NCBI GenBank assembly: GCA_905178155.1
Contig: CAJINV010000001.1
Span: forward strand, 12,832,635 to 12,896,634
Source of the DNA: Amoebophrya sp. A120
Taxonomy: Eukaryota; Protista; Dinoflagellata
Direction of reading: 5' to 3'
DNA: 64,000 nucleotides
The notes under the pieces: generated by a model
Database searches by the model: none
Seen by the model: the letters and a program-made list of their open reading frames with translations, nothing else
What the model was told of the DNA's origin: nothing
In this document: piece after piece, positions 4,864-64,000 of the stretch
Numbering within the stretch: position 1 is the stretch's first letter
Layout of the letters: each line of letters opens with the position of its first letter
Made by a program: the position numbers and the translations under genes

Positions 4864-7800
4864 TCATCCTGACATATCTGCCGTGGCCTCCTGAAAAATG
4901 TCGTGGAGCTCTTTCCACGCGTCAGAAAAAAACTTTTTGCGGTGCTCCGGCGCGATGGAATCAAAATCCAACCTGATATTGGGAAGCCTACCAGCCTCGC
5001 CAGAACACGCCTCAAGATCATCAAGCTGATGATGCCCCCTCCTTTTTGCGTCGACTTCGTCGCTGGGAAGTAGAGCGAAGCAGTCATCATCTACGACAGA
5101 ATCAGAATCTGTCAGCTCCCGTGCTGCTTCTCGGCAAGACGCGGCGAAATTGCCACTGTTGCCATCGTGATCATCTTGGTCAGGCCCGTGGGCGAGGACA
5201 TGCCGAGCCTTTTGATTTTCTGAAGACCCACTGCTGCTGCCGCTGCTGCGTTCACGACGCATTTTCGGCGAAGAATCATCTTCGGATGCCCACCAGCAGG
5301 CCTCCGAAGATTCGTCCGATCCATCTTCGTCGAAAATCTCCACAACTTCTTTGCTGTAATTTGTCGCGTTCCTGTAGTTCCGACCTCTCAGCTGCGACAT
5401 CTTCGAGTTTTGTGTCGTCGGGTCTTCTTGTGTAGACATGGCAGTATCGCTTTCGAGTTGGAACTCTCCTCGCACTATCCTGTGCAAAAGCTGCCCCGCG
5501 ATCGTACTAATCGCTGTCAAATCTTACCTAATCTGGATGGCAATCTTCACAAGTCGTATTTTGTTTTTCTTGTACCTGCAAAAATGCGATTCCGATTCGT
5601 ACTAGCGCGTCGACACTTTAACTTTTGCAATTACATAGGTAGTGCGTACAGTTCTGGCTCGAAAACTTCGCGGATCCAGGTCGATGAGAAGGTGTCCGAT
5701 GATGAAACAGAGCGGCGACGACGCGCGCAAGGAGAATGCAGGGTAGAAAGGAACGCGAAATCGTCTGCTAGCGGCTTCTCCTGTTTACGTTTAGTTAGAA
5801 AAGGGTCTGTGGAGGTTTTCTCAGTTTCAGTTATTTTCAATGTTGAAACTAGGTCAGCGCCCTGCTGCACCTGCACCTGTTCCGCTTCCGGCTGACACTG
5901 ATGGTCGGAGTCATATTTCGGTATTTTTTCGGAAGATAGGAGATCTGGTAATATTCCTGTTCCTCGTCTGACTGCTTGCGCACCAGCTTCGGTTTTGTTG
6001 ATTCCAGTTAAGACTTCGTCAACAAATTGCCCCTGTCGTGGGCGGTGCGGTGGATGAAGCTGCGACCGTTCTGAAATTTCTTGTTCGAGTCGTTCTGTCC
6101 ATTGTTCGTGGACTCCATCATCGTTGACATTTCTTGGTGGGAGTTCTGGCACCGGCGGCGCTCTTATTTCTGTAGTTGCCGAAGACTTTTTCTTCTCTTT
6201 GTCGTCACACGAAGGTACCCCGACGCCAGACGAAGGTACAGATTCTTTCTGTGCCACGGCATGCTCCCGGGAGAGAAACTCGGCCACGACGGAGTATTGC
6301 TCAGCGCAGTCATTCGTCTTTTGCTTTTCCAAAAAGCTGGCGCAAAAATAGTCGTCGACGTCGTCCCGGGACAGCACGGGGTGCTCTATGATCTGTTGCT
6401 GCCTGCTCCCGCCCACGTCGTGGAGGTCCGCTCGGGCACGGGCCTTCTTTTCGGATTCGTTGGCCTGCCTGGCTTCAGAACTGAATGGTTCTTGGGGATC
6501 ACAACGACGATGAAGATCATCATTTACCTGACTCATCGTATCTGGATCGGTGTCTCGGCTTCCGGGGAGCGGGAGTCCTCGTGCTGCAAGCAGCGCAAGG
6601 CCTTGTTCTCTCTGCTCCGCTGGAGACGCAAAGCTTCGTAATTCATCGCGACTTCGTGCGATTGGTACATCATCGTCAAGAACATCAACGACAATGCTTT
6701 GCCTTTCTTCGTCCTTTATTACATTCTGTACTGCTGCTCGCCGAGGTAGCACGACACTTTCCACCTCTTCCGCTCCGGTTCCCGTGCGATCATCGCTGGT
6801 GGGTGGCTTTTCAACTACATCTTCACCCGCAACGGCCTTGTCCGTTTCTATCCGAAGACCACCGTCTCGGCCGCCACCGTCGGTAATCGTCTTTCTCCTC
6901 GTGTCTTGACTGCTGGGAAACAGCACCACAGATCGATGCAGTTTTTCCGGCCGCGGTTCCAAGAGATCGTTGCCAGGGCGCTCAGAGTCAAGGAGCCGCC
7001 GGCAGCTGGATATAACCCGCTCAGGTGTTACAATCTCAAACGTTACAATAGAATATGGAAATCTGTGATGCAAGAGTGCATGATCTAGCCAACTCTCATG
7101 GGATTGCGCATGACAAGTTCCGGAGCGGCCCCGAACCCCACTACAATCTGGCGAAATCTGTATTGCAGAAAGTGGAACGCTGTGCGAGTCTGTCATGCTC
7201 ATCATGCAAGACAAATCTCAGAGTCAGATTCTATTGTAACGTTTGAGATTGTAACGTCTGAGCGGGTTATACTGGAACGGCGGGGTTTCTCGTCCGTCAT
7301 TACCAAAAGGGTCGCGGGCGTCGAACTCGGAGAAACGGAGTCTCTATCATCCTCGCTTTTTTTTCCTCCGATGTCTGCTTCTCGCAGATGATCCTTTCGT
7401 CGGAGAGCTGCGTCGTCACCCGGAGCTGGACTATTTGAAGCTGATGAAGCGCTGGCCGTCCCGGTAGTGCCAGGCCGCGATTTGCGAACCCGTTCGGGTT
7501 GTTCGGAAGCGTTTCTAGTACAACAGGGCTTCAGTAGTTTTTTGCTGTCTGCGTGCGGGTCAGGGTCTGCTGCTGCTGGTGCGACGCTATTCGTGTTGTT
7601 CCCAGAGCGAACCTCGTTCTCGTTGTCCTTGTCTTTTTGACTGAGCGAAGATGATAAACTTTTTCCTTTCGAAGCCAGACGACGTTTATTCGGAGCTTCA
7701 TCAACTTTTTTCTGCACTGCATCTTCGACAAAGGAATCGACGTGTTGATCGCTACAACGGTTCAAGGAGGAAAGGCGACTGCGGCTGATGCTCCTGTGGC

Positions 7801-10201
7801 GGTTTTCATTTTCTTCGAGCTCCGGTGAAGACGGCTTCCTTTTCACTTCGGCACACAGCTCGGTGGGCGACTTTTTCTGGGCAAGTTTATTGTAAAATGA
7901 TTTTTCTCTTGCTCTTGGTGACAGAGACAACTCCGACGTTGATGATCCTCGTCGTTTGCTCTGCATATGACGTTCTCCTTGCCCGCTAATTATCTTCACC
8001 TTGGCAGTAGAAGGCTGTTGTACCAAAGAACGGCTCGTCATCCCTACTCCTGCCGCTTCTCGCAACGGTAGTTCCAGCTCTTCGAACGTTTGCCCGCGGA
8101 AGTGCGACTCGCTTCCACAGCGGGGGATTTCGCTGGGCAGGGAGCTGGGAAACAGGGACTCTCCTGGACATGCGTTCCCTGCCGGCGGCGAACAGCAGGA
8201 CTCGATTCTCGACGGCGCCGTCGAAAAGACGAAGGCGGAAAAGCGCTCGTTAGCAACGCCACAAGAGAGGGCATAGGCATCCTGTGCCTGCCTTCTTGTA
8301 TTGGCTGTGAGAAGTTGTAGACCGTCATCTTCGTGCGCCCCCGATATGGGTACGGTGTGCGTTTCCCTATAGAGGTGCCCATCAAGAGCATAATTCCGAT
8401 ATCGTTCCTCGTTTCTTTCCAACAGGTCCATCTTGGCGTTTATTTGCTCATCGTAGGCTCCTGTACGAGGCAAGAACGGGTCGGACGCGACAGACTTCCA
8501 AGACGACGGCGACGTGGAAATATCATCGGTGGCCGCCCCGTCCTCTAGGGACTTCGCTGCTTTGATGCCGCCCGCCCGACTTCCGTTTTTTTGTAGGCCT
8601 GGCGGAGAAAAAAGGTTTTCTTCGGTGAAGAATCCGTGCTCGAGAGCGCAGAGCAAAGCCTCGTCATTCGCGTTCTCCAGCATCTGGATGCGCCGGTTCG
8701 CAAAAGGGTCGGCGGCAAGGAGGACTCCATTTTTACAGGCGTCTTCTGGTTTTAGTCGTGCGACGCCATGACCACGCGGACGCGTCTTCGAGGAAGCTCT
8801 TCGCGGTTCTCCTGGTCGCAGCTTCTCATGATCTCGGCGTTTTCGAGTAACTGCGGCCCTTGCTTTTTTACTTCCATGGCGTTTTCTTTCCTGCCACGGT
8901 GCATTATTCGCACCTGCTGACGAATTGGCAATCCTCGTTTTCGGTTCGTCAGGCGCGTTCGCTCGTCGAATTGTTCCGGTACCGCTCTGTCGCGCTGCTG
9001 TTTCACTTCCATGTGCCTTTGAATTATGCCTATCGAGTGCAATTTTTTTGTGCGCGTTGGCGTTATTCCTGACATGAGAGGTCCTCGTGCCTCCTCGCTC
9101 ATCTTCTCCTGCGTGGCAACGCCCTCGCCCACGATACGACGACTTTCGCGGTTCTTCGACGGCGGCGCTACGTCCTGCGGCGATAGCATGCACAGCCTCT
9201 GTCGCCTTTTGTTTTCGCGGAGGTAACGATCCGAAACGCGGAGCACCTTGTTCAGGAGCCCGCAGCCGCGAGTGGTCTTCAGTTCCTCGCTCCGCCCACC
9301 CAGGATGGCACAAAATGGCCCGCCGAATTTTTGCGCCCGTTGCGGTGTTGCGACACACCTGCAGAGCTGTCATCCCCCGGCGGTCCCGGAGGTGAAGCGC
9401 GAAGAAGTCGTAGCGTTCGAGATATCCTGTGCAAAAGTATCTATCGCACTCGTATAGATGCATTACAAATTTCCTCAGCATGAGAAATAAAATTTGTAAT
9501 GCAGTTTTACCTTAAGAGCAAGATTTGTAAATGCATGTTTGCGATTACTACGAGTACGATACTTTTGCAATGCATACGAGAATGGCGTAGGCAACTTTCT
9601 TTTGGTCCAAGGCAGCCGCGATGTGCAGACAGGTGCCTCCGGTATTCGGACAGGGCTTGTTCACCTGCTCAAACTGGGGGTGCGACAATATCTCCAGCAA
9701 GAGCTTCTCGTGCAAACCGAGGTAGAGGCCGATGATGACCAGGGACCCCAACTGCTTTTGCTCATCGGGCAAAAGGTTCAGAAAATTGTCCATTCTCGTT
9801 GATGTGGTGCAGTCGGGGACGATGGTCGTTGTACAACTTCTGCTCGCTGCGACCTGGTGCCCGGGGGCGGTCTCATGTTGTCTTCTTTCTCGCCCTTTTC
9901 GGGATGATCTGGAAACAGACTGAGTCCGCTGATCGACGCAGTCGTAGCGTATGTTAGTACCTACACCCGAAGACCACGACCCGCGGTGCTGGCGTTGAAT
10001 CAGGCGCCGGATCTCCTTCAACGTTTTGCGCTCGACGAACAATGCCCGTAGCAAGCGATTAGTTGCCATGGCACGCCGCCGGCTGCTGGCGAGAGTCGGA
10101 GCGTCATTCATGGTGAAATTATCCACATTTTTGATGATCATACTGACAATATTGCGTCCAAAACTGAAACTGAAACTGATCTGGTTGCTTTGCTGAATCA
10201 A
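4864..10201 (-). CDS. Large low-complexity protein with N-terminal ankyrin repeats; interrupted by two introners and one GT-AG intron
   Basis: ORFs 9548-10201, 7202-9481, 5631-7214 and 4864-5520 join in frame. The join at 9423 gives GGTCLHIAAALDQKKVAYAILERYDFFALHLRDRRGMTALQVC (ankyrin-like). Start codon uncertain. Confidence 0.7.
7011..7271. mobile_element. Introner element, family E (261 bp)
   Basis: ~44-bp TIR TATAACCCGCTCAG..GTTACAATCTCAAACGTTACAATAGAAT. DR CTGGA at 7006-7010 and 7272-7276. Removal joins RRS|SCRR in frame. Confidence 0.92.
9423..9576. mobile_element. Introner element, family A (154 bp)
   Basis: TIR core TGCAAAAGTATC. DR CGAGA at 9418-9422 and 9577-9581. Removal restores the ankyrin repeat (AIL|ERY). 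Confidence 0.92.
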
Positions 10202-20639: not shown

Positions 20640-23600
20640 TTATTTCTTCTTCCCCGGAGTGGGCTTTGTCTGCGGGCTGTTGTTGGGCGAGGCTCCAAGC
20701 AGGAACCACTCCTTGTGCTGCATGAGAAACTGGAACACCTGCGTGCACTTGTCCATTTTTTCCGGGTTTTTATCCGGGTGATACTGGAGCTGCCACTTCT
20801 TAATTTTCGCCTTGCGTTCGGCCAGGGGTTCGTTCAGCGCCCGTTCCATCTGTTGGTGCAGCTCCCGCGTCGCCACGTTCACCGAGGCGTCCAGCTTGGG
20901 TCCCGTCGGCAGCGGCGTGGGCTTCTTCGGTCGCGCGTCGTTGCGGTTATTGCGCCCGGTGTCGGAGCCGCTGTCCGAACCTGGGTCCGGTGTGGTGCCA
21001 AAGTTCGCCCGGAAGAACGGGTCGTTGCCGTGCGGACCCGGCTGCCCGGAAGCCTTTCTCTTCTTATTTTCCTGGTTCTCCTGTTTGCCGCCAGCCCCGG
21101 CTCCGCCCGCGGTCGCGTTGTTGCCGTCTGGTGGGTCCACACCGGCCTTCCGCGCGCCGCCCCCGGCGCCGAAAAAAGCGTTTTTCCATTGCTGCTTCGT
21201 GTTCTTGTCGTTATTCCCTGCTCCGCCTGTCGTGAACCGTCGCCCCCAAATGCCGTCCCACTCCTTCGGTGTCTTGCGGAACTGCGCGTCCCGTTCCTTC
21301 TGCTGCTCCTCCGCCCGCTATGACAGTGCACAACTCCCCCTCCCCCTCATTTGTGTTGCATGAACAGCAACACAAGCGCTGGCAAAGATGCAGCTTTTGC
21401 ATAACAAACTGCGAGAGGATCGTAGTGCTGTTTTGGCTTTCGGAATCTGCCATGCAAAGAGTGCTAACAGGCAAAAGGTAGATTTGGGATTTTGCATGAC
21501 AAGTGAGGGGGAGGGGGAGTTGAAGTTGTGCTCTGTCATACCCGCTCGCGGTGCAGGTCCTCAAAAAAGTCCGCGTTGTCGTAGCCCTGCGTCTTGCTGC
21601 GGCGCCGGAACGCGCCAAACTTGATCGGGTTGCGGATGCTCCGAACCTCGCTGGTTTGCAGGTTTTTCTGCTTCAGCATCTCGAAATTCACCTCGTAGGG
21701 CTCGAAATTCATCTCGAACCGGACCGTCGGCTGCTTGTTCAGCCACGCGTACTTCAATTTCTTATCCTCTTGGGCGGCGTACACGTGCCACTGGTCGGTC
21801 TCGGGATCGTACCATTCGAAGCACTGCATAGAAAGATACATACCAAAGGTGCTTACAGGAGCTCCTAAACAACCTTTTCCTGCAGTAACGCCAAGAAGCT
21901 CTACTTATGGCAGCAAAGGATCATGATGAGAGTACTGACCCTGTTTCGGGCTTTGGCATCCATGGAGAAAGGGCGAGTTCATCAAAGCTTGAAAAATAGC
22001 TATTCGATGAAAAATTATGGTGTAGTAAAGTACGTCCCTCTTGTTGTTCGGGTTGTCCTCGGGAACTCGGTTGCCCTGCCCGCGGTAGGGGTAGTGGGTT
22101 TTCGTCTTCATGAGGTTCACGCGGCGGACGGGAATGCGGCCGTTTTCCTTCATCTCCTTGAAGTCGATCTTCATCTCCGGGCCGAGTTCCACCACGTCCT
22201 TCTTGCTGGCCCACGCTTCCGCGAGCTGCTTCTGCTCGGACTTGGGGTAGTTCAGCCACTTGCCGTTGCTATCCTCGTAGAACTGAAACAGAAATTGCGC
22301 ATAGTCCTCCTGCTGTTCAGTCGGCTGTGGCTCCTGGGAAGGTTTTATTTGCACCGCGATGGTAGGATAACACAAGGACGAGGATTGTAGTCGTGTGAGA
22401 TGACACTGACACATGAAGGCCAATGTACACGGTCCTTACTCCAGATGGCATGACTTCATCAGAGCAATGGCAATAAAAGGCAAAACTCTAAGTGTAGCAA
22501 ATCAAGATCGACAAATTTCAATTTTTACTTTTTCCTCTGCTGTTCCTGCAGCGGTGAAGTTGCGCTTCTGCTCTCCGGCCGCGAAGTTGGCGTCGGGTGT
22601 CATGCCTTGGTCGACGATGTTCTTCAGTCGAATCTTCCGCACCTTCTTCGTCCGAATGTTCGTTTGCGTCCACTCCAGGTAGTCGATGTCGTAGTTGTGA
22701 CCCATGATGGTAAGCCGTGTCGTCGCCATACCCCGCTTGTAGTCCTGCCAAAGCAGCTTGTCTGCGGCCCAACTATTAGTAGTGAATTGCTTTATAGACA
22801 TCTAAAGGTGCTTGCAATAGATACTGAAGCGGTCAAGCAGGTTTGGCAGTTATTTCATCTTGCTTCAAGGTTGGTGATTCTTTCCATCTTCAGCGTTAGT
22901 ATCTGGGCGTATCCATCGCATGCAGATGCACCAGACAAAAGATGAAACAGGGAAAAAGTTTGTAATCCTGGGCACAAATTTTACTGATTTTAGAAGGTAC
23001 TCAAAACTTCAACTCTTGTACTCAAAGTCCTTCCATTTGTCTCCTCCTTCCAACCACTGAAACTTGGACTCCGGCATGCGGCCTTGGAGATGCGCTGCCC
23101 CTGCCGCGGCCGTGTCGTCGTCAAGACCGGCAGACAACATGCGAATCTTTTTCACGTTGCCCGTCTTGAGATTCTTCTGCGTCATTTGCCGGAAGTTCAC
23201 CTCGTAGTCGTTTTTGCCAATGTAGAACTTGATGGTCGGGTAGTGTTTCACAAACGCGTGCTTCAGAATCTCCTGGTATTTGCCCTCGTACTGCTTCCAG
23301 TCGTGCCCGTGTTGCCACTCGAAGAACAACCGGGCCACCATGTCTTCATCCACAGGCTTGCCGCGGAACGTGTTCAGGTGCCCGCCCTGGGTCGTGGTCC
23401 CTTCGCCCGCCTGCTCCTCGCGGTCGCGCTTATTTTTCGCTCGGTAGTGTTTTTCCCCGTCGCTTCCCACCAGGGGGGCGCCGCGCTCCTTGCTGCGGTG
23501 CTTCTTTTCGTGCCACCCTTCCTGCGAGGGCATGGCCGCCATCTGGTATTTCCGCTTGTAATTTTCCTGTCGCGTTTCGCTGCTCGAGGACATCGGCTCC

Positions 23601-44850: not shown

Positions 44851-47800
44851 TTATTCCCCAACCGTCTTCGATGGCGTCTTTTCTTCCTGGTTGGCAACGG
44901 GAAAAATACCATCCTGCCCTTCTGCAGCTGTTTCGCCATAATTTGCGATTATTTCCCCTTCCTCAGCATCTTCGTGCTCCTCCTCTTCCTGTCCCGCTGC
45001 AGTTCCGTCCTCCGCCGGTAACGGAAGAGTTGCTGAAGCGATGCGGCCCTCCCCGTTTTCGTCCGTGACCAGCCAGCTAATGCTTTGTTGTGGAGCCGGA
45101 GGCACGATTTCAATCTCGTCCTCCTCCTCGTCTTGTTCTTCTTCGCCTGGTGTTGCTGTCGTCTGTTCCCCCTTCGACGCTTGTTGCAGGTCGCCATCTG
45201 ATAATTCTCCGCCCATCTTTGCCGGTTGTAGATTCGCCTCCTGCCTCGTGTTTCGCCCTTCTATTTTGTCTCGAAACGCGGAAACCGAGGGTCCGCTGTG
45301 TTTGCCGTCGTTGTCCGCTCTAGTATGTTGTCCCTGCTCGCCAGCGTCACTATCCTTGCTCACGATGCTGGAAGCAGTGGAGAGGTTTCGCGAAGGTGGC
45401 GGGATTATTTGGGCCTCCGACGAACTGGTGGTCGGGATAACACCACCGTACATCGAGGAACACGCACTCGTTGAGGCAGTACTGACGGAGGGAACCTGCA
45501 GTTGTTGAGCCATGTGATCCATTCTACATGAAAGAATAAGAATGTATAAAAACGAAAACCGCACCGGCCGCTGCGCCTTGTTTCTTTTAAGAAAGTTCGT
45601 CGTGAAGAACGAAACACAAACCTCTAAAAAAAGCCACCCATGCTGATGAGCAAACTACAAATTTGCGTACCCCGTTTTTCCTGCGTTCCATGCGCTTTTT
45701 TCGGTCGTTGTTCCGGGTGAGTGCGCGGTCCAAGACGTCCCGCCAACTTGGGTTGTACAGGGCGATGCCGACGCTGATGAGGGACTGGTTCTTGAGCATA
45801 GCGCTGCCCAGAATTTCCTCGAATTTCGCGCCCATGCCCCGGTTGTTCATGCACTCGCCCTGCTGCCCGGAGATGCGCAGAACCTCTAGACTTCGATTCA
45901 CGGAGAGCGAGTCCGCGATGGTGCACAGCGCGCTGACGTCCACGTAGTTGCCCTCAATGTTCAGCTCTCTCAGACTGCCGTTGTCCCGCAGCGACTTGCC
46001 GAGCACCTCCGCTTCCCCCGACTGCAGCGTGCTGTTTTGCAGGTACAGCCGCTCCAGAAAACGGTTTTTCCCAACCGCGGCGCACAGCTTCGGGGCAACG
46101 CGAAACTCGTTCTCGGGGGGCGGCATTTGCGTGCCCGCGAAAGAAAGTTCGAGCAGCGTCGGATCGTTCAAGAATACCCGGTGCACCATCCAGATCATCC
46201 AATTGGTGAACTGCCACTTCGCATCCACCTGCGCAAGCGTTTACTGTTTTCAGTAGAGACGGCTTCATGTCAAATCTTGTTCATCAACATGGCTTGAGAT
46301 AGCGATTGCTTTTGCATTCGAGCGGGGTGCAAGAAGTGACCACTTAATGTTAATCCGAACTCCACCTCCTCCACCCCCATTACTTCAATCAAATCGAAAT
46401 CTTCTCGTACCTTGATATTGAGACACTCCTCGATGGTGGTAATCTGGTCGATTTTCTTGAAGTCGTCCAGTACGCGCTTCTGGTCCTGCGGCTGGTTCTT
46501 TATCTTCTCCAGCTTCCGCACCCACCGCGCGAATTTCTCCTCCTCCGTCAGCTCATCCTCGTCGGTGCTCGACTCCTCCGACTCTTCCTGGTCCGGGCGC
46601 CACTGCCGGTTATGCAATGCAAAAGCATCGTACTAGTATGAATTGCATGACAAATTTTTCCTAGAAGAAAAATGAAATTTGTCATGCAGATTGAGGTAAG
46701 AAAACAGATCTGTAATGCTAGACTCGCATTTATGCGAGTACGACTACGATACTTTTGCAATGCATACCGGTAGTGTCCCATGGATTCCAGCACCGCCTTC
46801 ACGCTGGCGGCGGCCTTGCGCAAGTCCTGCCATCTAGGTTCTTCGATCAACGAGGTGACCGGGTTGATATTATTTTGTTTGGCGGAGGAGGTAATTATCT
46901 TTTCAGTTGTATTTTTGCAGTGATAGGATGAAGAAGAAGAACAAGAACCTCTACTGCTAGAAGTACTGCTACTGCTGCCCCCGGCCGACGAACGTCCGGC
47001 TTCCAGTAGGGCCGCTTGTTCCGTACCAGTTTCTGTCTGGACTGAGCTCCTTCCTGGGGACGCTGTCATGGACGCCGAGCTAGAAGTACCAGAGGAAGAA
47101 GATGATAGTGACGTCGTCGCATCGACATTTGTCGATATCGCCGTACTAGACGCCGTGCTCATCGCACAACTACTGCCCTCGTCCTCCTCCTCTTGCTCTG
47201 GGTTCCAGTTCTCCGTGAGATCCATCTGGTAGAAGACCTTCCCGATGCGGATGCAGTTGCCGCCAAAGACGCAGTCCAGCTCGCGTTTGTCGCCCTTCAC
47301 CGTATCGTACATGAGATCGCGCTATCAATTGTAAAAATGTCTGGGTCTGGAAGAATCCAACTTGTCATCGCTGATGTTGGATTATAAAAAAATCTGTATT
47401 GCATGAGCAGCAAAGAGAGTCCAAGTTTTGCTACACGGAAAGAGCATTTGTCATGCGGTATAGGCATCAGGAAGCCGTCACAAAACCTGTGATGCTAGGG
47501 CATGCATCACAGACGTCAGGAGTCATGCAAAATGTGCATGACAAACCTGGCAATCTTCCAGGCCCAGACATTTTTACACTTGATACGCGCATCTTTTCGA
47601 TACAGATCAGCGTGTCGTTCTCCAGCTTGCGACGCTTGATCATGCCCAGGTGCTTGTCCGCAAGCTTGGTGCAGCCGGTCGTAAATTGGGACTGGAATTG
47701 TGGTTGAAGTTTTGCAGTAGCAAGAAGTACGAACGTATAATGGCATGCTAGTTTCAAAACTTTCATATTTTGTGTACTTAAAGAGATAACTGAAGTTAAC

Positions 47801-49663: not shown

Positions 49664-52600
49664 CTATTCCATCAACAGGTCCGCCATCGGGGAGGCCGCG
49701 TATTCGTCCGGAAAGTTCTTTTCGAAGGTTTGCACAATCTCGGCGACAAAGTCCGGGCTGTAGACCTTGACCTCGAAGAGAAACTGCAGCAGCTGTTCCG
49801 GTATGCTCTGCAAAGGTATCGCAGTCGTAGTAATTGCAGTCATGCATTACAAATTTTTTTCTTAACGTAAATCCGCATGACAAACTTCATTTCTCATGCT
49901 CTAATGCATTTAATATACGAGTACGATACTTTTGCAGTTCATATCCGGCTCGATCCGGCTGCGCTCCAATTCGTCCGAAAACATCACGTATCAGAGTGCA
50001 CAACTTCTTGGACCTTTGTCCCTCTCCTTTGATTGTCCTACTTTACAAAGCACCATCACAGCCACTGTTTGCCTCTTGGCACTTCTTGTTTTTGCGAACA
50101 GGCAGGGTCATCTGGCAGCCAAGACAACACTGGAATTCTGTGCGAAATTGCCTTTGCCATGCAAAAGCGGCATATATTTTTGTTGACGTTTCTATTGCTG
50201 AAGGCTGATCATGCAGCTGTTAATAATGAAATGCGCTACAAATTATGACGAGCAGGGGAACAAGGGGAACAAGTTGTGCACTCTGATATGACGCGGAGCA
50301 TCTGCACGAAGGTGGTGAGGACCAGCCCGCAGCCGGCCTTCCAGAAGGTGTGCAGGACCACTTGCGCCAATTCCGAAAACTCCGGATCAATCAGAGACAC
50401 ATACACGTACATGCTGATCCGCTCGAACAACCCGGCCCTGGTGTTGTGAAATCATTGTGGAAATGAATTTAATTTTTTGGAAACATCATGCACGAGTAGG
50501 TAATCATGCTTCTCATGGTGGTGCGTGCAGGCGAAAGGCTAAGGCAAGAAGAAAGCACGTGCAACATGCACCAAAGTCGTGTGTTAACTGCCAGTAATTT
50601 GAAAGAACTGAAAGTATTGTAGCTATATGATGTTGATGTGGTCATATATATTGCCTCCGAAATACAGCGAGCGAATCAATTCATACGTAGCTTTGAACTC
50701 TACCAGTCTTCCTCCCCCAGCGTGAGGTCTATGTCTCTGATGCAGGCGAGTAGCAGCTCGAGATGGGCGGCGTCGAAGTAGTCTAGTTCCGAGGCCTCCA
50801 CGTCGTCAACGAAAGCTGACGCGATGTCAAACCCATTCCACAACTGGCGCAAGCAAACCTCGTCGTACGCTCGGGAAGCAGGGCCCATCACGTAACTGTG
50901 GAAAGATTTTATCAAGACGTGCTGCACTTCCTGCAGGACCCCGTCGCAGACTGAAAAAGATGCAGATCATCATCAAGAAAAGCAGACACTATACTGGAAA
51001 AAAATGGAAAATGAACATTTCAACTGCTGCAAATATATGAAGAATAGGAGTGCGAGACTCAACGCATCCAAAACTATACTTCAGTCTGTGCACAACCATT
51101 CCGAGTCGATTTACGCTCATTTCGGCGTCTATCAAATGTAAAAATGTCTGGGTCTGGAAAGTTGTGATGCTGTGTGGCGTGCCATGCATGAGGAGGCCAC
51201 GATTGCTGGCTCAGCATGACAAGTTTCTGAGCTTCTAGGTGTTGCCTATTCTGCATGACAAACTACGTTTCTGCATGACAGAAAAGTGGGGCTCTTTGGT
51301 AATGTGCATGACAGATTTAAGAGTCATGCCAGACAAGCATGACAAACTTGCATTCTTCCAGACCCAGACATTTTTACATTTGATAGCATCCGCCAACAGT
51401 CTCTGTCGTAGCGGCGCCGGCTGCGTCACTAGTATCTGGTAGGAAATAAAGGAATACATAATTGTAAAGGTGGATTCGATTGCAAAACAAGCTGCGGGGT
51501 ACGACTATCAATTTTGAAAAAAGCTGAGCAACGCGCAACCATATCAGCACGCACGTCTACACCAGGATGTACTTAGAAAGTCTATCAGTACCCTAACGTA
51601 GAGCGGCAGCAGCTGCTCCTTGAATTGCGGATGGACCAGGAGCAATACTACGTTGGCGAGCCCCACCTGGAGGACATTTCTCGAGTTAGTTGGAATAAAG
51701 ATGGACTGCACAAAGTGCATCAGCAGTTTCTCCGTTTCCGGTGGCCTCGGCGGCGCCGACGCTTCACTTGAGCTTGCGGATACTGACGAAATGGATTATG
51801 TGGATAGAATGCCAATGCAGTTGCAGCCGTTTGTTCTTTTGAGTTTTGACTTGTTGTACACTGTACAGGCCAAGTCTCACAATTTGTTATCATGATGCGC
51901 GAAAAATACCCTCGCGAACAAGTAGAGCGAATGCTTGTTACGAGTAGCAACAATCTTCTTTCTCTATGCCTGTAGACCCACTTACCTAGATTCAGCAGCA
52001 AATGGCAGGCGAGAAGGAGCAATTGCGCCTGGACTTCCCACCACGTGTCTTGTGCGAGGTTTTTCATTGCCGGTACGAGGGCGAAAACGCCTTCCAGAGA
52101 TATGTCCTTGGCTTCCGGGGCGTAGCTGTGATAGAAATTATTGTAGGCGAATCTATAACGACCACGACGCTCCTGCTCCTCTTCTTCAGCATCAATTTCA
52201 TGATCACGGCAGATCGATGAAGAAGGAGATCGAGGTCTACGCAACCAAAATAATCCACAAAGATAGTGTAGCAATGTCGCCCCAAGGCTAGAAGTATCCG
52301 CACGGTGGGTCGATGCTACGCTGTACTACTTCGTTGCATCACGGTTTTTCATCACCTGGAAGGAAGAAAAAAGAAAATAAGAAGTACTCGGCGGTTTTGT
52401 TGTAGTCGTAATCCTCCTTGGCACTGACGATCTGCGTTAATATACTCAACCCGAATACTATGAGGAGAAAAAAGTGTTACAGTTACACATTGTCATGCAA
52501 GACGGGCAACACAGCCAACCTTTCTCATGCAGGAAATGCTTTGGAGTTGGAGCCTCGTTTCCTTCCTGTTTTCCCTTATGATCTTTGCATTGCAAGTTTT

Positions 52601-54915
52601 CTTTGTCATGCAGAGGAAACTTGTGATGCTGAAGTTACAGCAGATGTGTAACTGTAACACTTTTTTCGTGGGATAAATACCCGGACGCGAGGGGACGCGT
52701 CTTGGATGCCCAGTTGGGCGTAATACAGGTACAGGTCTAGCAGCGTCGGATCCTGTTGTAGATATTCATGTTGACATGTGTTGAAAAGCATTTTGCTTCG
52801 GCGGATCTGATCTCCATTTCCAGTCATCTCCAAGGGACCGTCGGACTGCTGTTGACGCTACCCTCATGTAAATAAGGCGGTCTTGTTGAGACCCGTTAGA
52901 TATCCTGGCGACCGTTGAAGGCAATGCATGAAAGCAGTTGTACAACTTACCCCAAGGAGTCCCATCTGCGCTTCTATACCGACGAGGAAAGACAACAGAT
53001 TTACGTACACCCCGACTTCGGCAACTCGCTCCTTCAGGTGCCTTAGCGCTGCAATGTGCGCCTGCGACGTGTCACCGCTGTAAGAAAACACGAAGTCGGC
53101 CACCGCCTCCCGCTTACTGCCGACCAGCGTCGCCAGCTTGGCCATGTCCGGAAGGCCTCCGTCGATCCACAGGTGCTCGGTGATGACCGGATCCGTTTTA
53201 GACAGCGTGGCGCCGAGGCGCTTCAAAAAGTACGCAATGCCCTCGAACACGGGGTTGTCGTGGCTCAGCGAGAACAGCGGCTGGCTGAACAGGGTAAAAA
53301 TTTTCGAAAACTCGGGTGGGTTCTTCAAACATGTCTCGGCGATGCCGCGCAAGACGCCCTGCCCGGTCAGGGACTCGAGTATTCTAAGTGTAATCCCCTC
53401 CGGAATCTGCTCCACGTGCTCCATGAAACTGACCACCTGCAGAATGAAGTGCAGACTCAGTCGCGATGGATTTGTTGTTAAGGATGCACGACGGCGGGGG
53501 AACAAAATCAAAGTGCGCCATAATATTTTTTGCAGTAATTGATTAAAAAATCAAAGTTCAAATTGCAGTCCTACTACTTCATCTCACAAAAATGAAGAGG
53601 TCCCTGCTTCTGGTACCAGGTCTTTTCTTGGATCGATGATGCGGTAGCAGTCTGCATCAATGGCTTCGGCAAAGATGGGCTTCATTATGGCGAGACAACT
53701 CTCTCCGGACACGGCCCCGTCGTCGAGGCTCCGGGCGGACGCCGAGGTCGCGAGCCGGCTGTGCTGCCGGAACATGGTCAAGTTTTTACTGATCGGCTTT
53801 ATGCTTGCCTCCTTGATGTCCAGGTGCGAGATCTCGAACTGTTTGTCGGTCAATTCGCTTCTTCATAGGAGTCGATGTCCAAAAGAGCAAGGTCCGTTTC
53901 ACTAAAACAGGCCGCCCCATGGCGGGATTCACTACGGCAAACAATTTCTACTGAAACTGAGTTCAAGTTCTTCCAGGGGTACGAAGATAATGATAAACAA
54001 AGAACAAAATCCATGAAATAAAAAGTTTTTTTAGTACATTGCTACTGACGACCCTCGGCTCGCCCCTACCGGAGTGCGCAGGTCTGCTAGTCCGTGCCGT
54101 TGACATCATTTGCGCTTGTTCTCGTTTCGCTGGCTCGGGTGGATCCGGTTCCTTTGCAGTAGTTGAGGCTGCCCTTGAAGCCGCGTCATCGGCGCCCTTT
54201 ATCGAAGCGAAGAGAAATGAAATCGATGCTGATTCCAAATGTGATTTAAGTTTTTTCAATAGAACCCCTGGAGGAACAACTTGTTCTTTTAGATGAAGCC
54301 ATGGCGTCGATACAAACTAACTGCCTATATCGCTCTTCTGGCTGGCCTCCAGCAGTAGAGATCTTTTCATCTTTTTCGGCATGTAGGGTGAATGTCTTCA
54401 GTTGCTCGTCATGCCACCCTATCAGTATCTTTTGCAAGACGCATTCGCTTTAGGAATCATCCAGGCGACTTTATCTTCTCGTCGATATCTCCAGTGGCGG
54501 CGGCACTGGCGTCTGCGGGTATGGTTTCTACGAGCGCATTGTAGTCCACGGCCACGCGCTTGGTTAAAAATGTGTACAGTTTTTTCATGAGCGCGACGCT
54601 CGCGCCGGCGACATTGTTGATTACCGGATCGAAGTCCGGCCGGCCGATGTCCACCTTATGTTTCACAAAAAATTTCAGCAACTGGTCCCAGTTATCCCGC
54701 TTGATCTTCAGCTGCGTACCGGCCTCGTATGAGTGCATGTGGATCTCCTTCGGGTGGTACCTGGAGAGCACTTCTGCCACCAAGAATCCGTTGCTGAAGT
54801 CGCGCCCGACATTCACGATGGCGAAACTCAAGTCCAGTGACTGTAGCCACTTTAGAATCTCCCGAGGCAGCCGCGTTTGCGGCTCCACCCCGTCGGTTGG
54901 CCGTCCTGGGAACAT
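49664..54915 (-). CDS. SPATA4/SPEF1-like CH-domain (DUF1042) protein with a long helical C-terminus; four introners plus several GT-AG introns
   Basis: LPREILKWLQSLDLS..RDFSNGFLVAEVLSRY..KRDNWDQL. The last exon ends PMADLLME*. Some internal exons are only approximately traced. Confidence 0.75.
49802..49943. mobile_element. Introner element, family A (142 bp)
   Basis: TIR TATG..CTGCAAA.GTATCG. DR TCCGG at 49797-49801 and 49944-49948. Removal joins RIEP|EQLLQF. Confidence 0.92.
49989..50288. mobile_element. Introner element, family C (300 bp)
   Basis: Perfect 18-bp TIR TATCAGAGTGCACAACTT. DR TCACG/TGACG. Removal joins MLRV|MFSDEL. Confidence 0.9.
51130..51385. mobile_element. Introner element, family B (256 bp)
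   Basis: Perfect 30-bp TIR TATCAAATGTAAAAATGTCTGGGTCTGGAA. DR GCGTC/GCATC. Removal joins LAD|AEMS. Confidence 0.92.
52459..52675. mobile_element. Introner element, family F (217 bp)
   Basis: TIR TAT.....GAAAAAAGTGTTACAGTTACACAT. DR AATAC at 52454-52458 and 52676-52680. Removal joins RVRV|FGLSIL. Confidence 0.92.
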
Positions 54916-56607: not shown

Positions 56608-59600
56608 TTATTTTCGGCGAATGAACACACCCTGTTCCATCTCGACCGGGTCAAAGTCTCCTAGCGGCTCGTTGAGCAAGCGGCTGACGATCTCCGCGGG
56701 CACCTTATTGAACTCCATATCTTCGAAATTTCCCCGCAAATCCAGCACCGCCAGCGCAGCGCTCGCCGCTGCGGCGTAGACCAGTGCGGAGAACGCCTCG
56801 TCACTGCGGAAAGCGATCTCGTTGTTGGAGAGGCACAGGAACTGGATTGTGGGGTGCATGGCCACCATCTCCGCGAACCTCAGAGCGCCCAGCTCGCGCA
56901 CCCGGTTGCTGCCCAAGTCGACGGAAAGCACGTTCAGCAAGCTGGTTTCCACCTCGCTGTGATGCAGCTCCGAGCCGCCGATGCTTTCCGCGAGCGCCAT
57001 CGCGCCAGATTCGGTGATGTTATTCTCGGACAGATTCAACGACGAGAGGCGCGGCAGCGACTGGATGCTGTGCGCAATGCACACGGCGCTGATGTCGCTC
57101 ATCTGATTCGCCTGCACGCTCACGTGCACTAGCGTAGATCCACACTTCACCAACGAAGTAAACCTGAGATTTGGTTGTATTGATATATATAATCACGAAC
57201 TGGTACTGGAGGCTAAACTTCTACATTATGTACACAATGACAATCCAGGCCCAGTAGCTTTTACTCTGCGTTCACGCTTCACTATTTGTTCCTGGGTTTT
57301 GGAATTTTTGTATGCGCGTTGCAGTCTTGTGAGCTTCGAGAGGACGACATTTTTCCACCGCAAAAGTGCAACAAAAAAAAATCAGATATAGAAGCGAATG
57401 CTTGTACAGGTCCACCACGCCGGAGTCCCCTAAGTTGTTGAATGCCAGGTTCAGGTGCGTCAGCGACGCTAGGTCCAACTGGTCCGCGGCACCCAAGTCC
57501 CAACTCAGGGGGGACATGGAAAGAAACAGGTGCTGGATGTCCATGGAGCTGACCGAACCCAAAATGTCGCCCACCACGGCGGGATCGACGAAGGGAAAAC
57601 AGATGCGGTGCTTGGCCAGTCATCCTGTGGAAAAAACTTCGAGTTGTCGTGCCAACGTTGACTCTTCTGCTTGCAAAATTATACTTTGCAGCACACCAGA
57701 TCGACACGCACAGGCAAAACACAACATATAATTGGTTTTGGCAAAAAAATTGCATGCAAATAAAAATACTTAAAACAGACCACACGGACTGTGAAAATTG
57801 AAATTCTAAAATTCGAATTGCCAGGACAACGCGAGGATATGTTTTTTCCATTTTCCTAGGAGCTTGTCGCTGTAGATGTCGGAGTGCGTCAGGTGCACCT
57901 CATCGTTTCCATACAGTGTACGGAAGCAGTCGTGCATGCGCTGGCTGTTGATGTTGTTTACATAAAGCGGCTTGGCGGGTAGGTCCGTGAGTGCGGCTGC
58001 GCCGTCTGCGGTTGCCGAGCCTCCTCTTATCGCCGCGTCCTTCCGCGCTTTCCGCTTCACCAATTTCTCCACCAGGTGCCCGAAAATGCCCGCGGGGCCC
58101 GCTGTGTTGACGTGCACCGTTTTTGTGACCGCCTTCACGACCGTATCCATTATGGAGTTCTCAAATGTTACATTCTCAACTGTTACATGATTTGTCATGC
58201 AAAATTACCTTGACTATCGACGCCATCAAGCCGCTTCGCGCGGCAAATTCTCATACGGCCAAACAGGCTCAGAATCTGTGTCAAATCTGTCATGCAAGAC
58301 GCGCAAGGTCCTTCCTTTCTTTTCACATTTGCCATTCTTGCATCACAAATTCATGCAACAGTTGAGAATGTAACATTTGAGAACGCCATATCCATTTCTT
58401 CTTGGTTCTGCATTAGGAAAATGGTGCCGTCGTCCTGGATGTGCATCCCGTGCTCGGCAGGAATCTTTGGAATCACACTCAGCTGCACTTTGGTGCTCAC
58501 GGGAGTGGCGCGGAAAAATCGTACTATTTCCTTCAGCTCACGCTCCAGCTTAGACCTGAAAATTCGACGTGTAACAACGAAAATCAGTACTAACAACACC
58601 ACATAAATCCACAATCACAAAACAGTGCGATGTGATCAATCGGAAGTCAACATCCACCTGGACAGGACGTGCTGGACAAAGTAAATTTTTCTGCCTGTAC
58701 CTGATGACTATTGGTGGCACGAAAGGCGCGGTGTTTCCGGTCGGTGCTCGACTGACGTCGTGTCTACGCTTGCTGCACTTTTGCTCCATGGCTGCCAGCT
58801 CGGACTCCATGTCCATGTTGTGTGTGACCAGGAGATGCACGTGGCAGTGTGGGATTGCCGGGAAGGTGTGCAGGACGTGCGCGAAGAAGTGCGCGTCGCA
58901 TTCCGACAGAACGCTGTTGCCCACCGCTTGGTCGACGTCCACGCGGATCACGGCGGGCGGCAGGGGTTTTCCGGCCGTCGTGGCGACGGTAAGCGCCTCG
59001 ATATCGATGCCGTTCAGCACCTTCAGGCTTTTCAGCCCCGCGCTGCTGGGTTCCTGCTGGACGCTGGCCGCCTCCCCGAAGGCGGTCAGTGCAATCTTGG
59101 ACCGGAGCAGCTGGTACAGCTCGAACGCCGTCCGCGCGCGGAGTTTCGGGCAGTACCGGACGGTCAGCTTCTCCAGCGTCGGGCAAGCGTTTTCGACCGA
59201 TAATTGCTTGCACAAAACCGCCACCGCTGCATCCGTCAGGGACGGGTTGCGCGACAGGTTCAGCTCCTGCAAAAACGGAAGCGATGTCGACGAGGGGAGG
59301 CCTGTCGTTTCAGAAACAAAAGAAAGATGCGGGGCGTGGGAATATCACTTTCGAATTGTGATGTCAAAAGCAAAAGCTTAAGCTACAGGCTGAAAAGTGC
59401 TCATACGTATCACCACCATCTCAATCAGGCCTACGCTGCGCTCAAGTATCAGTGGAGAATGAGTCCAAGCAGAAAACGTTCAACAGATCAAGTAAACAGA
59501 AGAGATGTCTCTATGACCACTATGATCACTACACTTCTTCTAAAATGAAGTAGTACCGTCCGCGGGTGTGAAGCACTTGAGCAAGCCGCAAAGACCACGC

Positions 59601-62600
59601 ACGCCAACATCGGTGATGGTGTGTCCCTCCATTTTTAGCGGAGAGGTGTTGGGTTCCGGCCACACGACGTGCGGCCAGAGTTTTAGCCTGGAGAGAAGCC
59701 CGAGCGAAAAGTCGTTCCACACCACATCGTTGGCCAGTATGGCCCCCTTGACGCTGTCCGTCCCAGTAACCTGACCCTTCTTCTCTTCGAGTAGTCTCAT
59801 CAGCGGAATGCCATTCACTGTGCGGAGACGCGAAGAAATTTCGGAAACCGCTGACAGCAGCAGATTAGCGCCCCGATTGCTGGTGTGATAGCGTTGTTTT
59901 GTGGTCACGACTCTATCGATTTTTGACAATTATGGTCTCGCGTACAACTGAGAAGACCATCCCCCTTTTTATTTTTTTTTGTTCATCTTGCAGCTGCATC
60001 GATCGATTCTGATACTTGTTTGGTTATGTTCATCTGCAGATGCCGATGTGGATCACTCCTTCATGAGGAGAAAGTTGTAGTACCAGGTGTTGAATCAGGA
60101 GCTGCGATCCATCGAATTCGAAAGACGCTTACCTAAGAATATGGAAAACTCAAAACCGCTGTATTGGTATTTAATGAAGCAGTATCATGTACCTGAGCTT
60201 CAAATTCACGAAGTCCAGATTTTCCAGTGATGGCAGCGCGAGCAGGGCGTCGCAAATGTAAGCCAAGGTTGAATCGGATACCGCGTGATCCTTCACCTGG
60301 ATACTGGTAAGCTCGGGAAAGTTGGTCGACGTTACCAGGGACGCAAACAAGTAGCCGTCTCCCTCGTCTAGCGTGACGTATTCGCTGGCGAAGGCCGTGG
60401 CGCAGTAGATGTTGTTGCTTTCGTTCTCTTTCTGCTCTTCCTCCGCCAGTTGGGGCACCGGAATGCCGTGGTGATCGAACTTCAACTCTCGCATCGTGGT
60501 ATGCAGGGCAAAAATCGTTGTATCGTTGAGGTTGCCGTACTACCCTTTTTTCTTTGTCACCAATAAAAATACGCTAGTACCAACTACAGAGACAAGACCA
60601 TACATCATCTTCATGGTCATGGTGTCACACACGAGCTTCAAAAAGTTCAGGCACTGCCTCTCCTGCGTGGAGGCTTTCTAGGATCACGTTCACGATGTAA
60701 GTTGTATCATATTTTCATGTCAAAAACTTACTCCACGTATGTACACCCTCTACGATACCTTTTTTTCCCACAATATTTCTGCGCGTCGTCGACCACGACG
60801 GGAATCTGGTTCAGTGTGAGCAAAGTGTTGTTCTTCTCGAGCAGACTGATGATGTACAAACAGTCCTGCTTGTCCAATCCGTTCCCCCTCAGGTCCAAGG
60901 ATGCTATTGTGGGGCTGGACAATAGCGACTCCAGGCACACGCGGAGAAAATCACTGCTGAAACTCTTGTATGAATTGCAAAAAGATCTTTGGTCACAGTC
61001 GCCTGACAGAAAGATGGAAGAGCAATACATATACGATCTTAACTTTAAATTGGTTGAGACGAGGATGGTTGTGATCGAGATTGTCTCTTGTCCTTGAACT
61101 ATAAAGCTCGCTTGTACTTCAACACCTTGCATGGTTATTGAGCTTCTCGCTCCTCATCCCGTACAAACGAAACTTCTCACCTCAACATCATGGCAGAATT
61201 ACTTACTGCATCAACTTACTGTCAATGTATGTCATCCTGCCCGCAAGATCATGACGACGACCACATGCTTTAACATTTTTTTTCCCGTAGCTGGCTCGAG
61301 CTCGTTGCTTTCTGCAGGACGGACTCGGTGCCGAGCTTGGTGCCCACCGGGTCCCAGTGAAATTGCTCTACCTCGTTGGGGTCTATTTCCAGGGCGGAGA
61401 ACCCGGGTAGGTCCGTAAGCTTCTCCATCCCGCCGCCGGGCGCGTCGTTTTCGAGGTACTGTCCCGGACGAAATTTGCATCGCGGCTTCGCCCAGAGCGC
61501 TCGGCTGGTGTTCGGCCACTCGTCGCACCGCAGATTGCCGATCAGTTGCTTCAGGTTGACTTGGCAGAGCGACACTTCCCGCAGCTGCAGGGTGGTGTCC
61601 AGCGTGGGCAGCTCAAACGCGAGCGGGGTGTGCCCGCCAAGGTCGTCGGGGTAGAACTGCCCCCCTTCCCACTTGCCCCCGCTGGCTTCGGGGTAGTAGT
61701 ACTCTTTCGGCGTGGTTACGCAAGGGATGTAGACCTGGGGCGCGTAGGTGTCGTTTTTGGCCCACCCGTCCACCAGAACCGCGCCCAGGGCGTTTGCGAA
61801 GTCGGTGAGCGTCATAGCCACCAGGGCGTTTTTCGGGACCTGGCCCACCGCGCTCGTCATCACCTCGAAGCTCTTCGAGGCCGCGGAGCTGATGCCCTGT
61901 TATCAAAAGGAAAAATCCCCCCTCCCCATATCGAAACGAAGTTTCTGATGCTGGATTTGCGTACCCAAATCAGATCTGTCTTGCTGGCGAGGACTGCAGG
62001 CGCCTGCCAAGCCTGAGTAGAGAGCTTTTGGCCTAGGCGCTTAGCATGAGAAACGTCTACGCTGTAGGCCCAACAGCATGACAAACCGCCTGCATAGTGC
62101 GGCAGAGCCTGCGGCGTTGTCTTCTTGCAAGACAGACTTGATTTGGGGTCTCAAATCAGCAAGACAAATTTTCGGAAACATACCTTTTCGATATGGGGAG
62201 GGGGGATTTTTCCTCTCAATACCTGTTGCAGCTTCACCAGGGACGCCCGCTGCGCCTCGCTGAAGACCTTCGGAACCCGCCGCGTCTGGAGCCACTTGCG
62301 GTCCAGCCGTATTCGCTCCAGGTCCTGCTTGCTGTCGGGACTCTGGAAAACGTCCACCAGCGCGTCCAAAACCGTTTCCAGCCGTTCGAGCCCGAACTCG
62401 CGTAAGTTTGGCAGCAGCTTGGCGGCGCGGACCATTTCAACGGCGGTGTTCTGGCTGCGGAGCCGCAGGTTGTGCACGAAGGGAGGGATGTTTCGGTTCC
62501 CGTTGTTCTCCTGCAGGTAGGCCGCGATTGCCTGCTGCGTCTGCGCCACGCCGCTCGCTTTCTGGTCGAGGAAGTGCAGGTATGAGAGTGCACAATTCCC

Positions 62601-64000
62601 CCTCCACCTCATTTGTATTGTATGAACAGCAACACAAGCAACAGCGGAAAAGGGACTTTTTCATGACAAATCTGTATGCGGATTGTAGTAGTATCTATTT
62701 GAGGTTCCAAAATTTGTCGCGCTAACAGTGCCTACGAGCAAGGTGTCGTGCTCGTGTGAGTTTGGTATTTTGCATTACAAATGAGGGCGAGGGGGACTTG
62801 TGCACTTTCATAGCAGGTCAATGTCGTATACCAGCTTGTCCACGAGCCGAAAGCAGTCAAAGACGAAGGGGATCTTCAAGTCTTTTCTGCCGCAGGTCAG
62901 GGACAGCATCAGCAAGGAGTTTTCATCATCCTGCCCGCCGCCGAGCTGGCACACCACGCCCGGGCAACATTCCAGAAGCTGTTTTCAGTTTATTAGTGCC
63001 AGCATTTGGATTCATTTGTACGACTACTAGCATAGCAAATGGCACTAGCCAACCTTTCGCGTTCTCAGACCACAGGAACATGCCCACAGTAAAAAAATTT
63101 CTGCGCCCCATTTCCAGTGATTTTAATTCATTCGTACCGAAAAAGTGAGAATTCGCCTGTGAAGATTTGGCTCTTAGTCAGAACTTGTTACCAACAAAAG
63201 TGCGCGCTCGGCACTATCGGAGTCGTAGTTTTTGAGTTTGACGTTTCCGAAGACTTGCAGGGTTGGTATTTCCGCGAGAAAGTTCTGCAGCACCTGCCAG
63301 TGTTTTCTATGGGGTCCGAGCTTGTCTTTAATCCAGGTGGGCAACCGTCCGTCGTTACTCCAATCCGGCGGCACCTCCGTGATGGTTGCGGCCGCGTAGC
63401 CGGGCAGCCTCAGATCCAGCAGCGACTTCGACGTTCTGAGATGACGCATTATTTGCACCGCTAGCCCGTCCATACCCGGCGGAATGGCGAGTTGCACCTG
63501 AAAATGTAAATCAAACAAAGCAATAAGAATAAGCAGGAAGTTGCAATTCAAATTCTACTGCGTATTAGATGAAGCTGCCGCTTGAGGAATGTTCTGTCCT
63601 GTAGCCCTCGCAAACTTATAATTTTAGAACGGCTCGTCCCAATGTAACAATAAATGAAAAGCAGGGAGCATGAATTCCGATGGATGTAGTTGCTATAAGT
63701 ACTTTCGTAAGAATGTGGCGGCACTCGTGAAGACAATTGTTCAGCGCCGGACAGAAGCTAACTGGGTAGGCGGTAACCGCTGGAAATTCGTTGGTGAAGG
63801 TCGTCTTGGCAGCTCCATACTTGAAATCCGTTTTACTCGCGGGGCAGATCACCGCGAGCAGCCAAAAATAGAGGGCAATCTCGGACTTCACAGGGCTGGC
63901 AAATATGCGGTCGACAAGCTATCAACATGAAAAAATCTACATCACCTCATCGCCGTTCGCCTTCGCGGTTTATTTTCAGTGTCCTCATTGACATCAAGTA
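56608..64000 (-). CDS. Large multi-exon RNI-type leucine-rich-repeat protein (5' end probably outside the window)
   Basis: LSSLNLSENNITESGAMALA, LTHLNLAFNNLGDSG, IASLDLRGNGL and QELNLSRNPSLTD. Contains three clear and two eroded introners. Confidence 0.75.
57621..57858. mobile_element. Eroded introner-like intron (family A-like)
   Basis: Inverted TGGAAAAAAC near both ends. Left end CATCCTGTGG resembles 9423 TATCCTGTGC. Flanks CCAGT/GGAGC. Removing element+5 nt gives DKL|AKHRIC. The nearest CAG acceptor leads to a stop. Confidence 0.5.
58151..58390. mobile_element. Introner element, family D (240 bp)
   Basis: ~40-bp TIR as at 38313. DR TCCAT at 58146-58150 and 58391-58395. Removal joins EEM|DTVVK. 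Confidence 0.93.
60500..60775. mobile_element. Eroded introner-like intron (family A-like)
   Basis: Arms TATGCAGGGCAAAAA..GTATCGTTG and TATTGTGGGAAAAAAAGGTATCGTAG. DR lost. Removing element+5 nt gives AQK|MRELK in frame. Confidence 0.5.
61901..62221. mobile_element. Introner element, family G (321 bp)
   Basis: TIR TAT....AGGAAAAATCCCCCCTCCCCATATCGAAA, extending imperfectly to ~100 bp. DR CCTGT at 61896-61900 and 62222-62226. Removal joins LQQ|GISS. Confidence 0.93.
62581..62812. mobile_element. Introner element, family C (232 bp)
   Basis: TIR TATGA.AGTGCACAA.TCCCCCTC..CCTCATTTGTA. DR GCAGG at 62576-62580 and 62813-62817. Removal joins DIDL|HFLDQ. Confidence 0.93.

Follow-up and report, generated by a model that had tools for sequence, protein, structure and literature searches.

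The closest described counterparts of the elements analyzed here are the introners of the dinoflagellate Amoebophrya sp. A120, whose genome is reported to hold about 30,000 of them, with both the mobilizer and the splicing route given as not known (PMC7789003). As described, they have inverted repeats with a TAT start, seven looser bases and AAA, are flanked by direct repeats of 3-5 nt, measure about 240 nt (PMC7789003), lack GT-AG and fall into many families (PMC7789003, PMC12130899). An integrase-like family is reported by Gozashti et al. (PMC12130899). The present study concerns a 64,000-nt stretch of this genome (contig CAJINV010000001.1, positions 12,832,635 to 12,896,634; hereafter the window), whose elements match the published introners in their TAT...A-run ends, short direct repeats, lack of GT-AG and multiplicity of families (PMC7789003, PMC12130899), and a short motif, GCATGACAA, that recurs inside them across families. 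To judge from its arrangement, this motif probably forms an array to which a protein binds on DNA in the service of transposition, with removal from RNA being read from the element ends. The elements are already published; no printed account of the motif itself turned up in our searches. Neither it nor its phasing is described in the searched sections and supplements of the two introner papers, whose figures S19-S25, as images, lay outside the search (PMC7789003, PMC12130899). Full-text searches for the motif string and on Amoebophrya introners, with image figures and subscription papers outside their scope, did not find it either, the checked string match being a primer (PMC6482013).

Arrays of short repeats inside the ends are known from other mobile elements. 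Those of the hAT element Hermes are bound by BED domains, and their exact phasing is said to be crucial; like the sites described here, they are short, present on both strands, asymmetric between the two ends, and phased. However, Hermes sites are 4 bp long and the target 8 bp (PMC10368747), against a site of 9-13 bp and a 5-bp duplication in the introners, whose array moreover spans the whole element and is common to families with different bases at positions 16-30. The MITE (miniature inverted-repeat transposable element) Emigrant is likewise nonautonomous and has subterminal repeated motifs to which proteins of Lemi1, a related transposon, bind cooperatively, but it is a single pogo-like family, and its description includes no cross-family sharing or intron function (PMC1636448). 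By analogy, the introner array likely works like the subterminal repeats of Hermes and Emigrant/Lemi1, but it is shared across families with unalignable interiors. Two further systems resemble the introners in their ends. IS3EU/GingerRoot elements have the same TA..TA termini, but their duplications are usually 6 bp (PMC10045372). The nonconventional introns of euglenids share hairpin ends, non-GT-AG borders, and fixed offsets from the cut sites, but their conserved letters are terminal (CAG/CTG), and the account of them describes no internal phased array (PMC11282704).

An internal motif common to introner families

In the window, exact copies of GCATGACAA number 19 against 0.92 expected, a count reached in none of 100 shuffles, and the degenerate form GCAWKACAA occurs 30 times against 3.05 expected; on an order-3 background, the motif is the most over-represented 9-mer of the window. 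All 19 exact copies lie within elements. Searching for TAT...ATA termini flanked by 5-bp repeats yielded 14 clear elements (3614 bp), which hold 18 of these copies, and the remaining one, at 40782, is within a decayed element (40735-41168). This and two other decayed elements (54200-54487 and 57621-57858) were added by sequence reading together with joints in likely-RNA contigs, i.e., contigs from two runs of one sample whose RNA nature is presumed. Altogether, the 17 elements (4573 bp) contain 19 exact and 44 one-mismatch copies, whereas nine canonical introns defined by the same contigs (1892 bp) contain no exact and no one-mismatch copy. A first, sequence-only reading of the window had noted such a cross-family motif, unseen in exact form in the ordinary GT-AG introns traced, and both observations hold, the enrichment over canonical introns being strong. 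Its examples were also recovered, namely, three exact copies in 51130-51385; inverted pairs in the elements at 46611 (46645+/46679-), 38313 (38452-/38502+), 47323 (47448-/47536+), and 41700 (41741-/42262+); a pair of GCATTACAA in the one at 9423 (9460+/9494-); and only weak matches in the one at 49989. An Rfam scan of the window gave no match. For a window exon, the best named match was from a dinoflagellate (Amphidinium, 57%), and the end grammar, GC content, and co-orientation of genes are in line with Amoebophrya A120.

A metagenome scan with the end of family A as query provided a larger sample of at least 133 related loci, all in one assembly, with 633 kb of nonredundant DNA. This DNA holds 378 elements, of which 176 belong to family A owing to the query and one, a 1031-bp "element" of locus L035, merges neighbors. 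The element search returned no false elements on 562 kb of shuffles; a 6.2-kb candidate in locus L038 was rejected as a chance pairing of ends. The related loci are another strain: run X1, which behaves as DNA, differs at exon positions and is without three elements of locus L053, with others being shared. With a motif matrix trained on the window only, and sites counted at a score of at least 10, every one of the 378 elements, in every end family, carries at least one site, giving 1723 sites in 97 kb. Elements hold 17.8 sites per kb, against 0.39 per kb in DNA remote from element ends and 0.16 per kb in shuffles. The consensus of these sites is GCAW(G/C/T)ACAR followed by RYT, such that GCAWKACAA, the form originally proposed, is indeed present but too narrow at positions 5 (G in 879, C in 484, T in 351 sites) and 9 (A in 1196, G in 517); the least variable letters are GCA and A-C-A. 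The element ends show the published TAT start, seven looser bases and A-run, with A at positions 11-13 in 690, 715, and 747 of 784 ends (the TAT start was imposed by the search and is thus not an independent finding), and the 5-bp flanking repeat, perfect in 12 of the 14 clear window elements, fits the 3-5 nt direct repeats of A120 introners. The motif might be taken for an internal duplicate of the terminus, but this reading was rejected, as T is seen at end position 5 in just 1 of the 784 ends.

The confinement of sites to elements bears on the possibility that a host protein of chromatin or transcription, unconnected with transposition, occupies the array (AP2-type factors and packaging proteins are examples), with the elements gaining only indirectly. 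Phased sites would suit any DNA-wrapping protein, and the apicomplexan AP2 motif TGCATGCA overlaps GCATG. However, CATG is not invariant in the introner motif, the 10.2-bp period of nucleosomal DNA fits the sites poorly (see below), and sites that stand alone outside elements are scarcely above background (111 in 501 kb, compared with 0.16 per kb in shuffles) in a sample that is mostly gene bodies. We regard such a host role as unlikely.

Helical phasing, conservation, and age

Consensuses of 12 element clusters have 4-7 sites each, usually 5 or 6, commonly in tandem pairs with a spacing of 31-33 bp and divergent pairs with one of 45-49 bp; in most cases the first inward site falls at position 32-33 or 40-44, and sometimes at about 55. 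We used a phasing statistic on site-to-site distances in which opposite-strand pairs are offset by half a turn. Its best period is 10.5 bp in 36 cluster representatives (0.33, with a null maximum of 0.16; 0 of 300 shuffles), in 13 window elements (0.41; 0 of 500 shuffles), and in nine family consensuses (0.50; 0 of 500 shuffles), with values of about 0 at 11.0 bp and 0.13-0.16 at 10.2 bp. When the tandem pairs of 29-34 bp are left out, the statistic at 10.5 bp is still 0.26; the opposite-strand offset, when estimated from the data, comes to 5.4 and 4.7 bp, and phase is held over differing numbers of turns, up to about 216 bp. B-DNA turns about every 10.5 bp, A-form RNA every 11, and nucleosomal DNA about every 10.2. 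The period of 10.5 bp, rather than 11 or 10.2, therefore puts the sites along a single face of the DNA duplex. The introners thus possess the multiple short phased repeats inside the ends that are seen in hAT and MITE-type elements. A Rayleigh test on first-site positions singled out no period, and AA/TT dinucleotides gave no clear periodic signal.

Most likely, one putative sequence-specific protein would bind the approximately 5-6 sites of an element, lining one face of the DNA, with the bound array helping to unite the two TAT ends of an element of 150-320 bp for transposition. Copies that keep the array would spread, and the array would be conserved between lineages and erode in old copies, whereas RNA removal would be read from the element ends rather than from the motif. 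We give slightly better than even chances to the binder being the transposase's own DNA-binding domain, as with the BED domains of hAT elements, and chances a little short of even to a host DNA-bending partner. A phased site of 9-13 bp common to all families could serve as bait in DNA pull-downs and offers a direct test for candidate transposases.

Conservation of the motif stands out against the divergence of its surroundings. Element interiors form 44 clusters, with cross-cluster alignment in at most 8% of pairs except between clusters 1/10 and 5/8 (an initial loose clustering, which linked 339 of 392 elements by chaining, was replaced; a motif-masked BLAST, being biased low by the mask, was not used). 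Inside a cluster, mismatches run at 0.066 in the invariant motif columns compared with 0.233 in the interior; this 3.5-fold greater conservation means that the motif is no neutral relic. The terminal inverted repeats of the families had been taken as unrelated. The families do differ, but all share the 5-bp duplication and an A-run at end positions 11-15, and 9 of 378 elements are chimeric, with ends from two families; in addition, tandem-pair spacers compared across families show an identity of 0.36, against 0.25 when shuffled (51 pairs). Because of this shared end grammar, the chimeric ends, and the spacer identity, the introner families appear to be one system of remote common ancestry with unalignable interiors, which suggests that the very many reported families are united under one putative binder. 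End positions 16-30, which separate the shared terminus from the shared motif, are occupied by family-specific short tandem modules (GTCTGG, CCCCCTC, ATCGTAC, GTTACA, and CCCCAC), which mix between families.

The common ancestry raises the alternative that the motif is a neutral remnant, inherited from an internal repeat of a single ancestral element and decaying at the neutral rate, as the sequence-only reading had already considered. The common ends and duplication length, the chimeric ends, the chaining of families at loose thresholds, and the spacer identity would all be expected from it. Nevertheless, the motif columns are far better conserved than the interior, most family pairs hardly align outside the two exceptions above, and phase is kept across varied numbers of turns. 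As the sole explanation, the relic is largely refuted and in our estimation very improbable; common descent combined with selection is likely.

The fate of the array after insertion can be followed in part. Three elements of locus L053 (5765-6049, 6100-6320, and 7624-7903) are missing from the contigs of run X1, with exactly one repeat copy remaining, while neighbors, e.g., those at 5411, 6875, and 7978, appear shared; these absences point to insertion differences between strains and recent insertion at the DNA level. This locus has 21 elements within 8.6 kb of one gene. As the flanking duplication degrades from five matches through four and three to two, site density falls from 18.6 to 16.5, 14.2, and 11.3 per kb (43, 31, 24, and 13 elements), although the lower classes may contain mispaired ends. 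A comparison of uncorrected singleton rates in the five largest clusters, which had given equal values (0.0107 vs 0.0107), was discarded as an artefact.

Removal from RNA and the strands of the motif

In the likely-RNA contigs, at least six elements are skipped together with exactly 5 nt, in the absence of GT-AG, and the same contigs skip at least nine GT-AG introns (both among the joints listed, 15 of 45). For the elements at 49989, 51130, 54200, and 57621, which have mismatched repeats, the joints agree that, read along the sense strand, the cut falls 1 base before the element and 4 bases beyond it, and the joint at 57621 settles this position unambiguously. Deleting the element at 7011..7271 together with 5 nt yields a frame of at least 600 nt to both sides. 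Raw RNA runs X9 and X10 gave 39 and 3 reads on the window, nearly all partial and mostly at element ends, and were not used as evidence. Run X9 (2026) covers no window gene, yet includes reads that resemble the end of family A with the motif behind it (90-95% identity; window 47330-47390); the family A end had no match in a viral sequence scan.

As elements without GT-AG must nonetheless leave the mRNA, the motif might itself be an RNA signal for their excision (a branch point, an RBFOX-like site, or the target of a small nuclear RNA), present on both strands and thereby effective in either orientation. A coding model assigned a gene strand to 229 elements (all window elements that it called came out on the minus strand), and in 145 of the 229 a sense copy lies no more than 60 nt from the 3' end. 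However, sense and antisense sites are about equally frequent (505 vs 553; 201 vs 229 in 109 stranded elements found with relaxed criteria) and equally conserved (mismatch in motif columns 0.070 vs 0.066, p=0.43); elements without a sense copy are as common (23 of 229) as those without an antisense copy (22 of 229). Cluster 4, whose sites are almost solely on one strand, lies in genes in either orientation (10 vs 15), and with locus-level strand calls just 1 of 14 clusters is nominally biased (cluster 1, p=0.024). A period of 10.5 rather than 11 bp also speaks against RNA. The specific signals proposed in the sequence-only reading fare no better. TGAC, the putative branch point, is within just 609 of the 1723 sites, and besides the 23 elements without any sense copy, there are 8 whose sense copies all lie more than 120 nt from the 3' end. 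RBFOX recognizes (U)GCAUG, but GCATG is within 776 and TGCATG within 320 of the sites, and the most invariant letters are instead GCA and A-C-A, without strand bias. Finally, a role of the motif in RNA excision is disfavored because the likely-RNA contigs skip both motif-poor elements, 57621-57858, which has no site at score 3, and 54200-54487, which has none at score 8. We therefore rate an RNA signal as very unlikely. An RNA test of antisense-only elements of locus L053 was rejected, since their joined forms also occur in run X1 and reflect strain differences, not splicing; that antisense-only elements are spliced is predicted from reading frames.

The other option raised at the outset, a shared recognition site on DNA, is the one favored by the helical phasing, the strand symmetry, the conservation within families, and the loss of sites with age, all read from sequence. 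Movement and excision from RNA then become separate questions, the former likely depending on the internal array and the latter likely on the ends. Several points nonetheless weigh against the array serving transposition. No transposase domain was found in the 26 window frames scanned, those of the related loci being outside the scan, and the text of Farhat et al. reports none in A120 (PMC7789003). Relative to the termini, phasing is less strong and its peak is broad (best period 10.8 bp, 0.26), family B departs from the common end spacing, and part of the site layout may be inherited, given the spacer identity. The gene strands come from the coding model and not from RNA, with calls for 229 of 392 elements, and the two decayed elements that are spliced each retain a one-mismatch remnant in sense orientation. 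Corrected private substitutions are lower in the motif columns (0.021) than in the interior (0.056), the former being near the rate of the duplication-repeat clock (0.028); many private changes predate insertion because less than 1% of the genome was sampled. Neutral decay of the motif after insertion is compatible with the data but only partly shown, and the motif may still be in use in inserted copies.

Such use would be expected if a motif-bound protein on DNA both aided mobility and marked the element during transcription, with the cut made 1 base before and 4 bases after its ends in an orientation-independent manner. If so, splicing would be guided from DNA, without splice signals, and any family in either orientation could become a harmless intron upon landing. 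Strand symmetry, the low private substitution in motif columns, and the finding that just 6 of the 109 stranded relaxed-criteria elements are without any site are in line with this dual role. Against it, the two motif-poor elements are skipped at contig depths of 119-127 and 48-81, and site density drops with age, which leaves a dual role quite unlikely in our view.

Elements and other features of the window

The 17 elements are collected in the table.

Elements of the window with their sites (position and strand), positions as counted in the window
Element	Type	Duplication	Sites	Remarks
7011..7271	clear	CTGGA	7063-, 7108+, 7158-, 7190-, 7206+	
9423..9576	clear, family B		9460+, 9478+, 9494-	
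21319..21540	clear		21351-, 21367+, 21399+, 21447-, 21494+	
38313..38552	clear, family D		38355-, 38403+, 38452-, 38502+	orientation opposite to 58151
40735..41168	decayed, TAT...GTA	4/5	40782-, 41056-	
41700..42309	clear, family A		41741-, 42112-, 42129+, 42152-, 42168+, 42231+, 42262+	insert of ~320 bp
46611..46766	clear, family B		46645+, 46679-, 46710-	
47323..47585	clear, family A		47394-, 47448-, 47487-, 47504+, 47536+	
49802..49943	clear, family B		49844+, 49875+, 49891-	element+5 nt skipped in likely-RNA contigs
49989..50288	clear	4/5	weak only: 50154-, 50190-	element+5 nt skipped in likely-RNA contigs
51130..51385	clear, family A		51162-, 51214+, 51253+, 51273+, 51306+, 51328+, 51337+	element+5 nt skipped in likely-RNA contigs
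52459..52675	clear		52490-, 52497+, 52522-, 52587+, 52603-, 52621-	element+5 nt skipped in likely-RNA contigs
54200..54487	decayed	1/5	none at score 8; one-mismatch remnant 54406-	element+5 nt skipped in likely-RNA contigs
57621..57858	decayed, CAT...CTA	2/5	none at score 3; one-mismatch remnant 57644-	element+5 nt skipped in likely-RNA contigs
58151..58390	clear, family D		58192-, 58287-, 58340+	
61901..62221	clear, family F		61943-, 61976-, 62044+, 62076+, 62127+, 62159+	sites form three tandem pairs (spacing 32-33 bp)
62581..62812	clear		62629+, 62661+, 62772+	sense strand without site at score 10

Three of the 26 elements longer than 345 bp hold inserts flanked by direct repeats of 16-19 bp that overlap a family A end motif (window 41744-42098; L038 5794-6297; L040 9994-10965). 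Two of the three inserts begin at the same base within the motif, and one ends in an A-rich tail; in the window element at 41700, the direct repeat is 16 bp and begins within the first motif. From their sequences, these inserts look like retroelements that target the motif.

Upstream of a minus-strand gene, two noncoding arrays of near-palindromic repeats occupy both strands of window 10880-11330 and 11580-11930, one type of repeat (CTTCAGAAG/CTTCTGAAG) being present in 13 copies and another (GAAGTCAGTGACTTC-like) in four; the former has just 5 occurrences in the 633 kb of related loci. The otherwise intron-rich window also contains a single open frame of 2088 codons on the minus strand (13595-19861), which encodes a TTI1 C-terminal TPR domain and has no clear element. 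A synapsin-like gene (Pfam Synapsin and Synapsin_C; 40200-43437, minus strand) is broken by the elements at 40735 and 41700.

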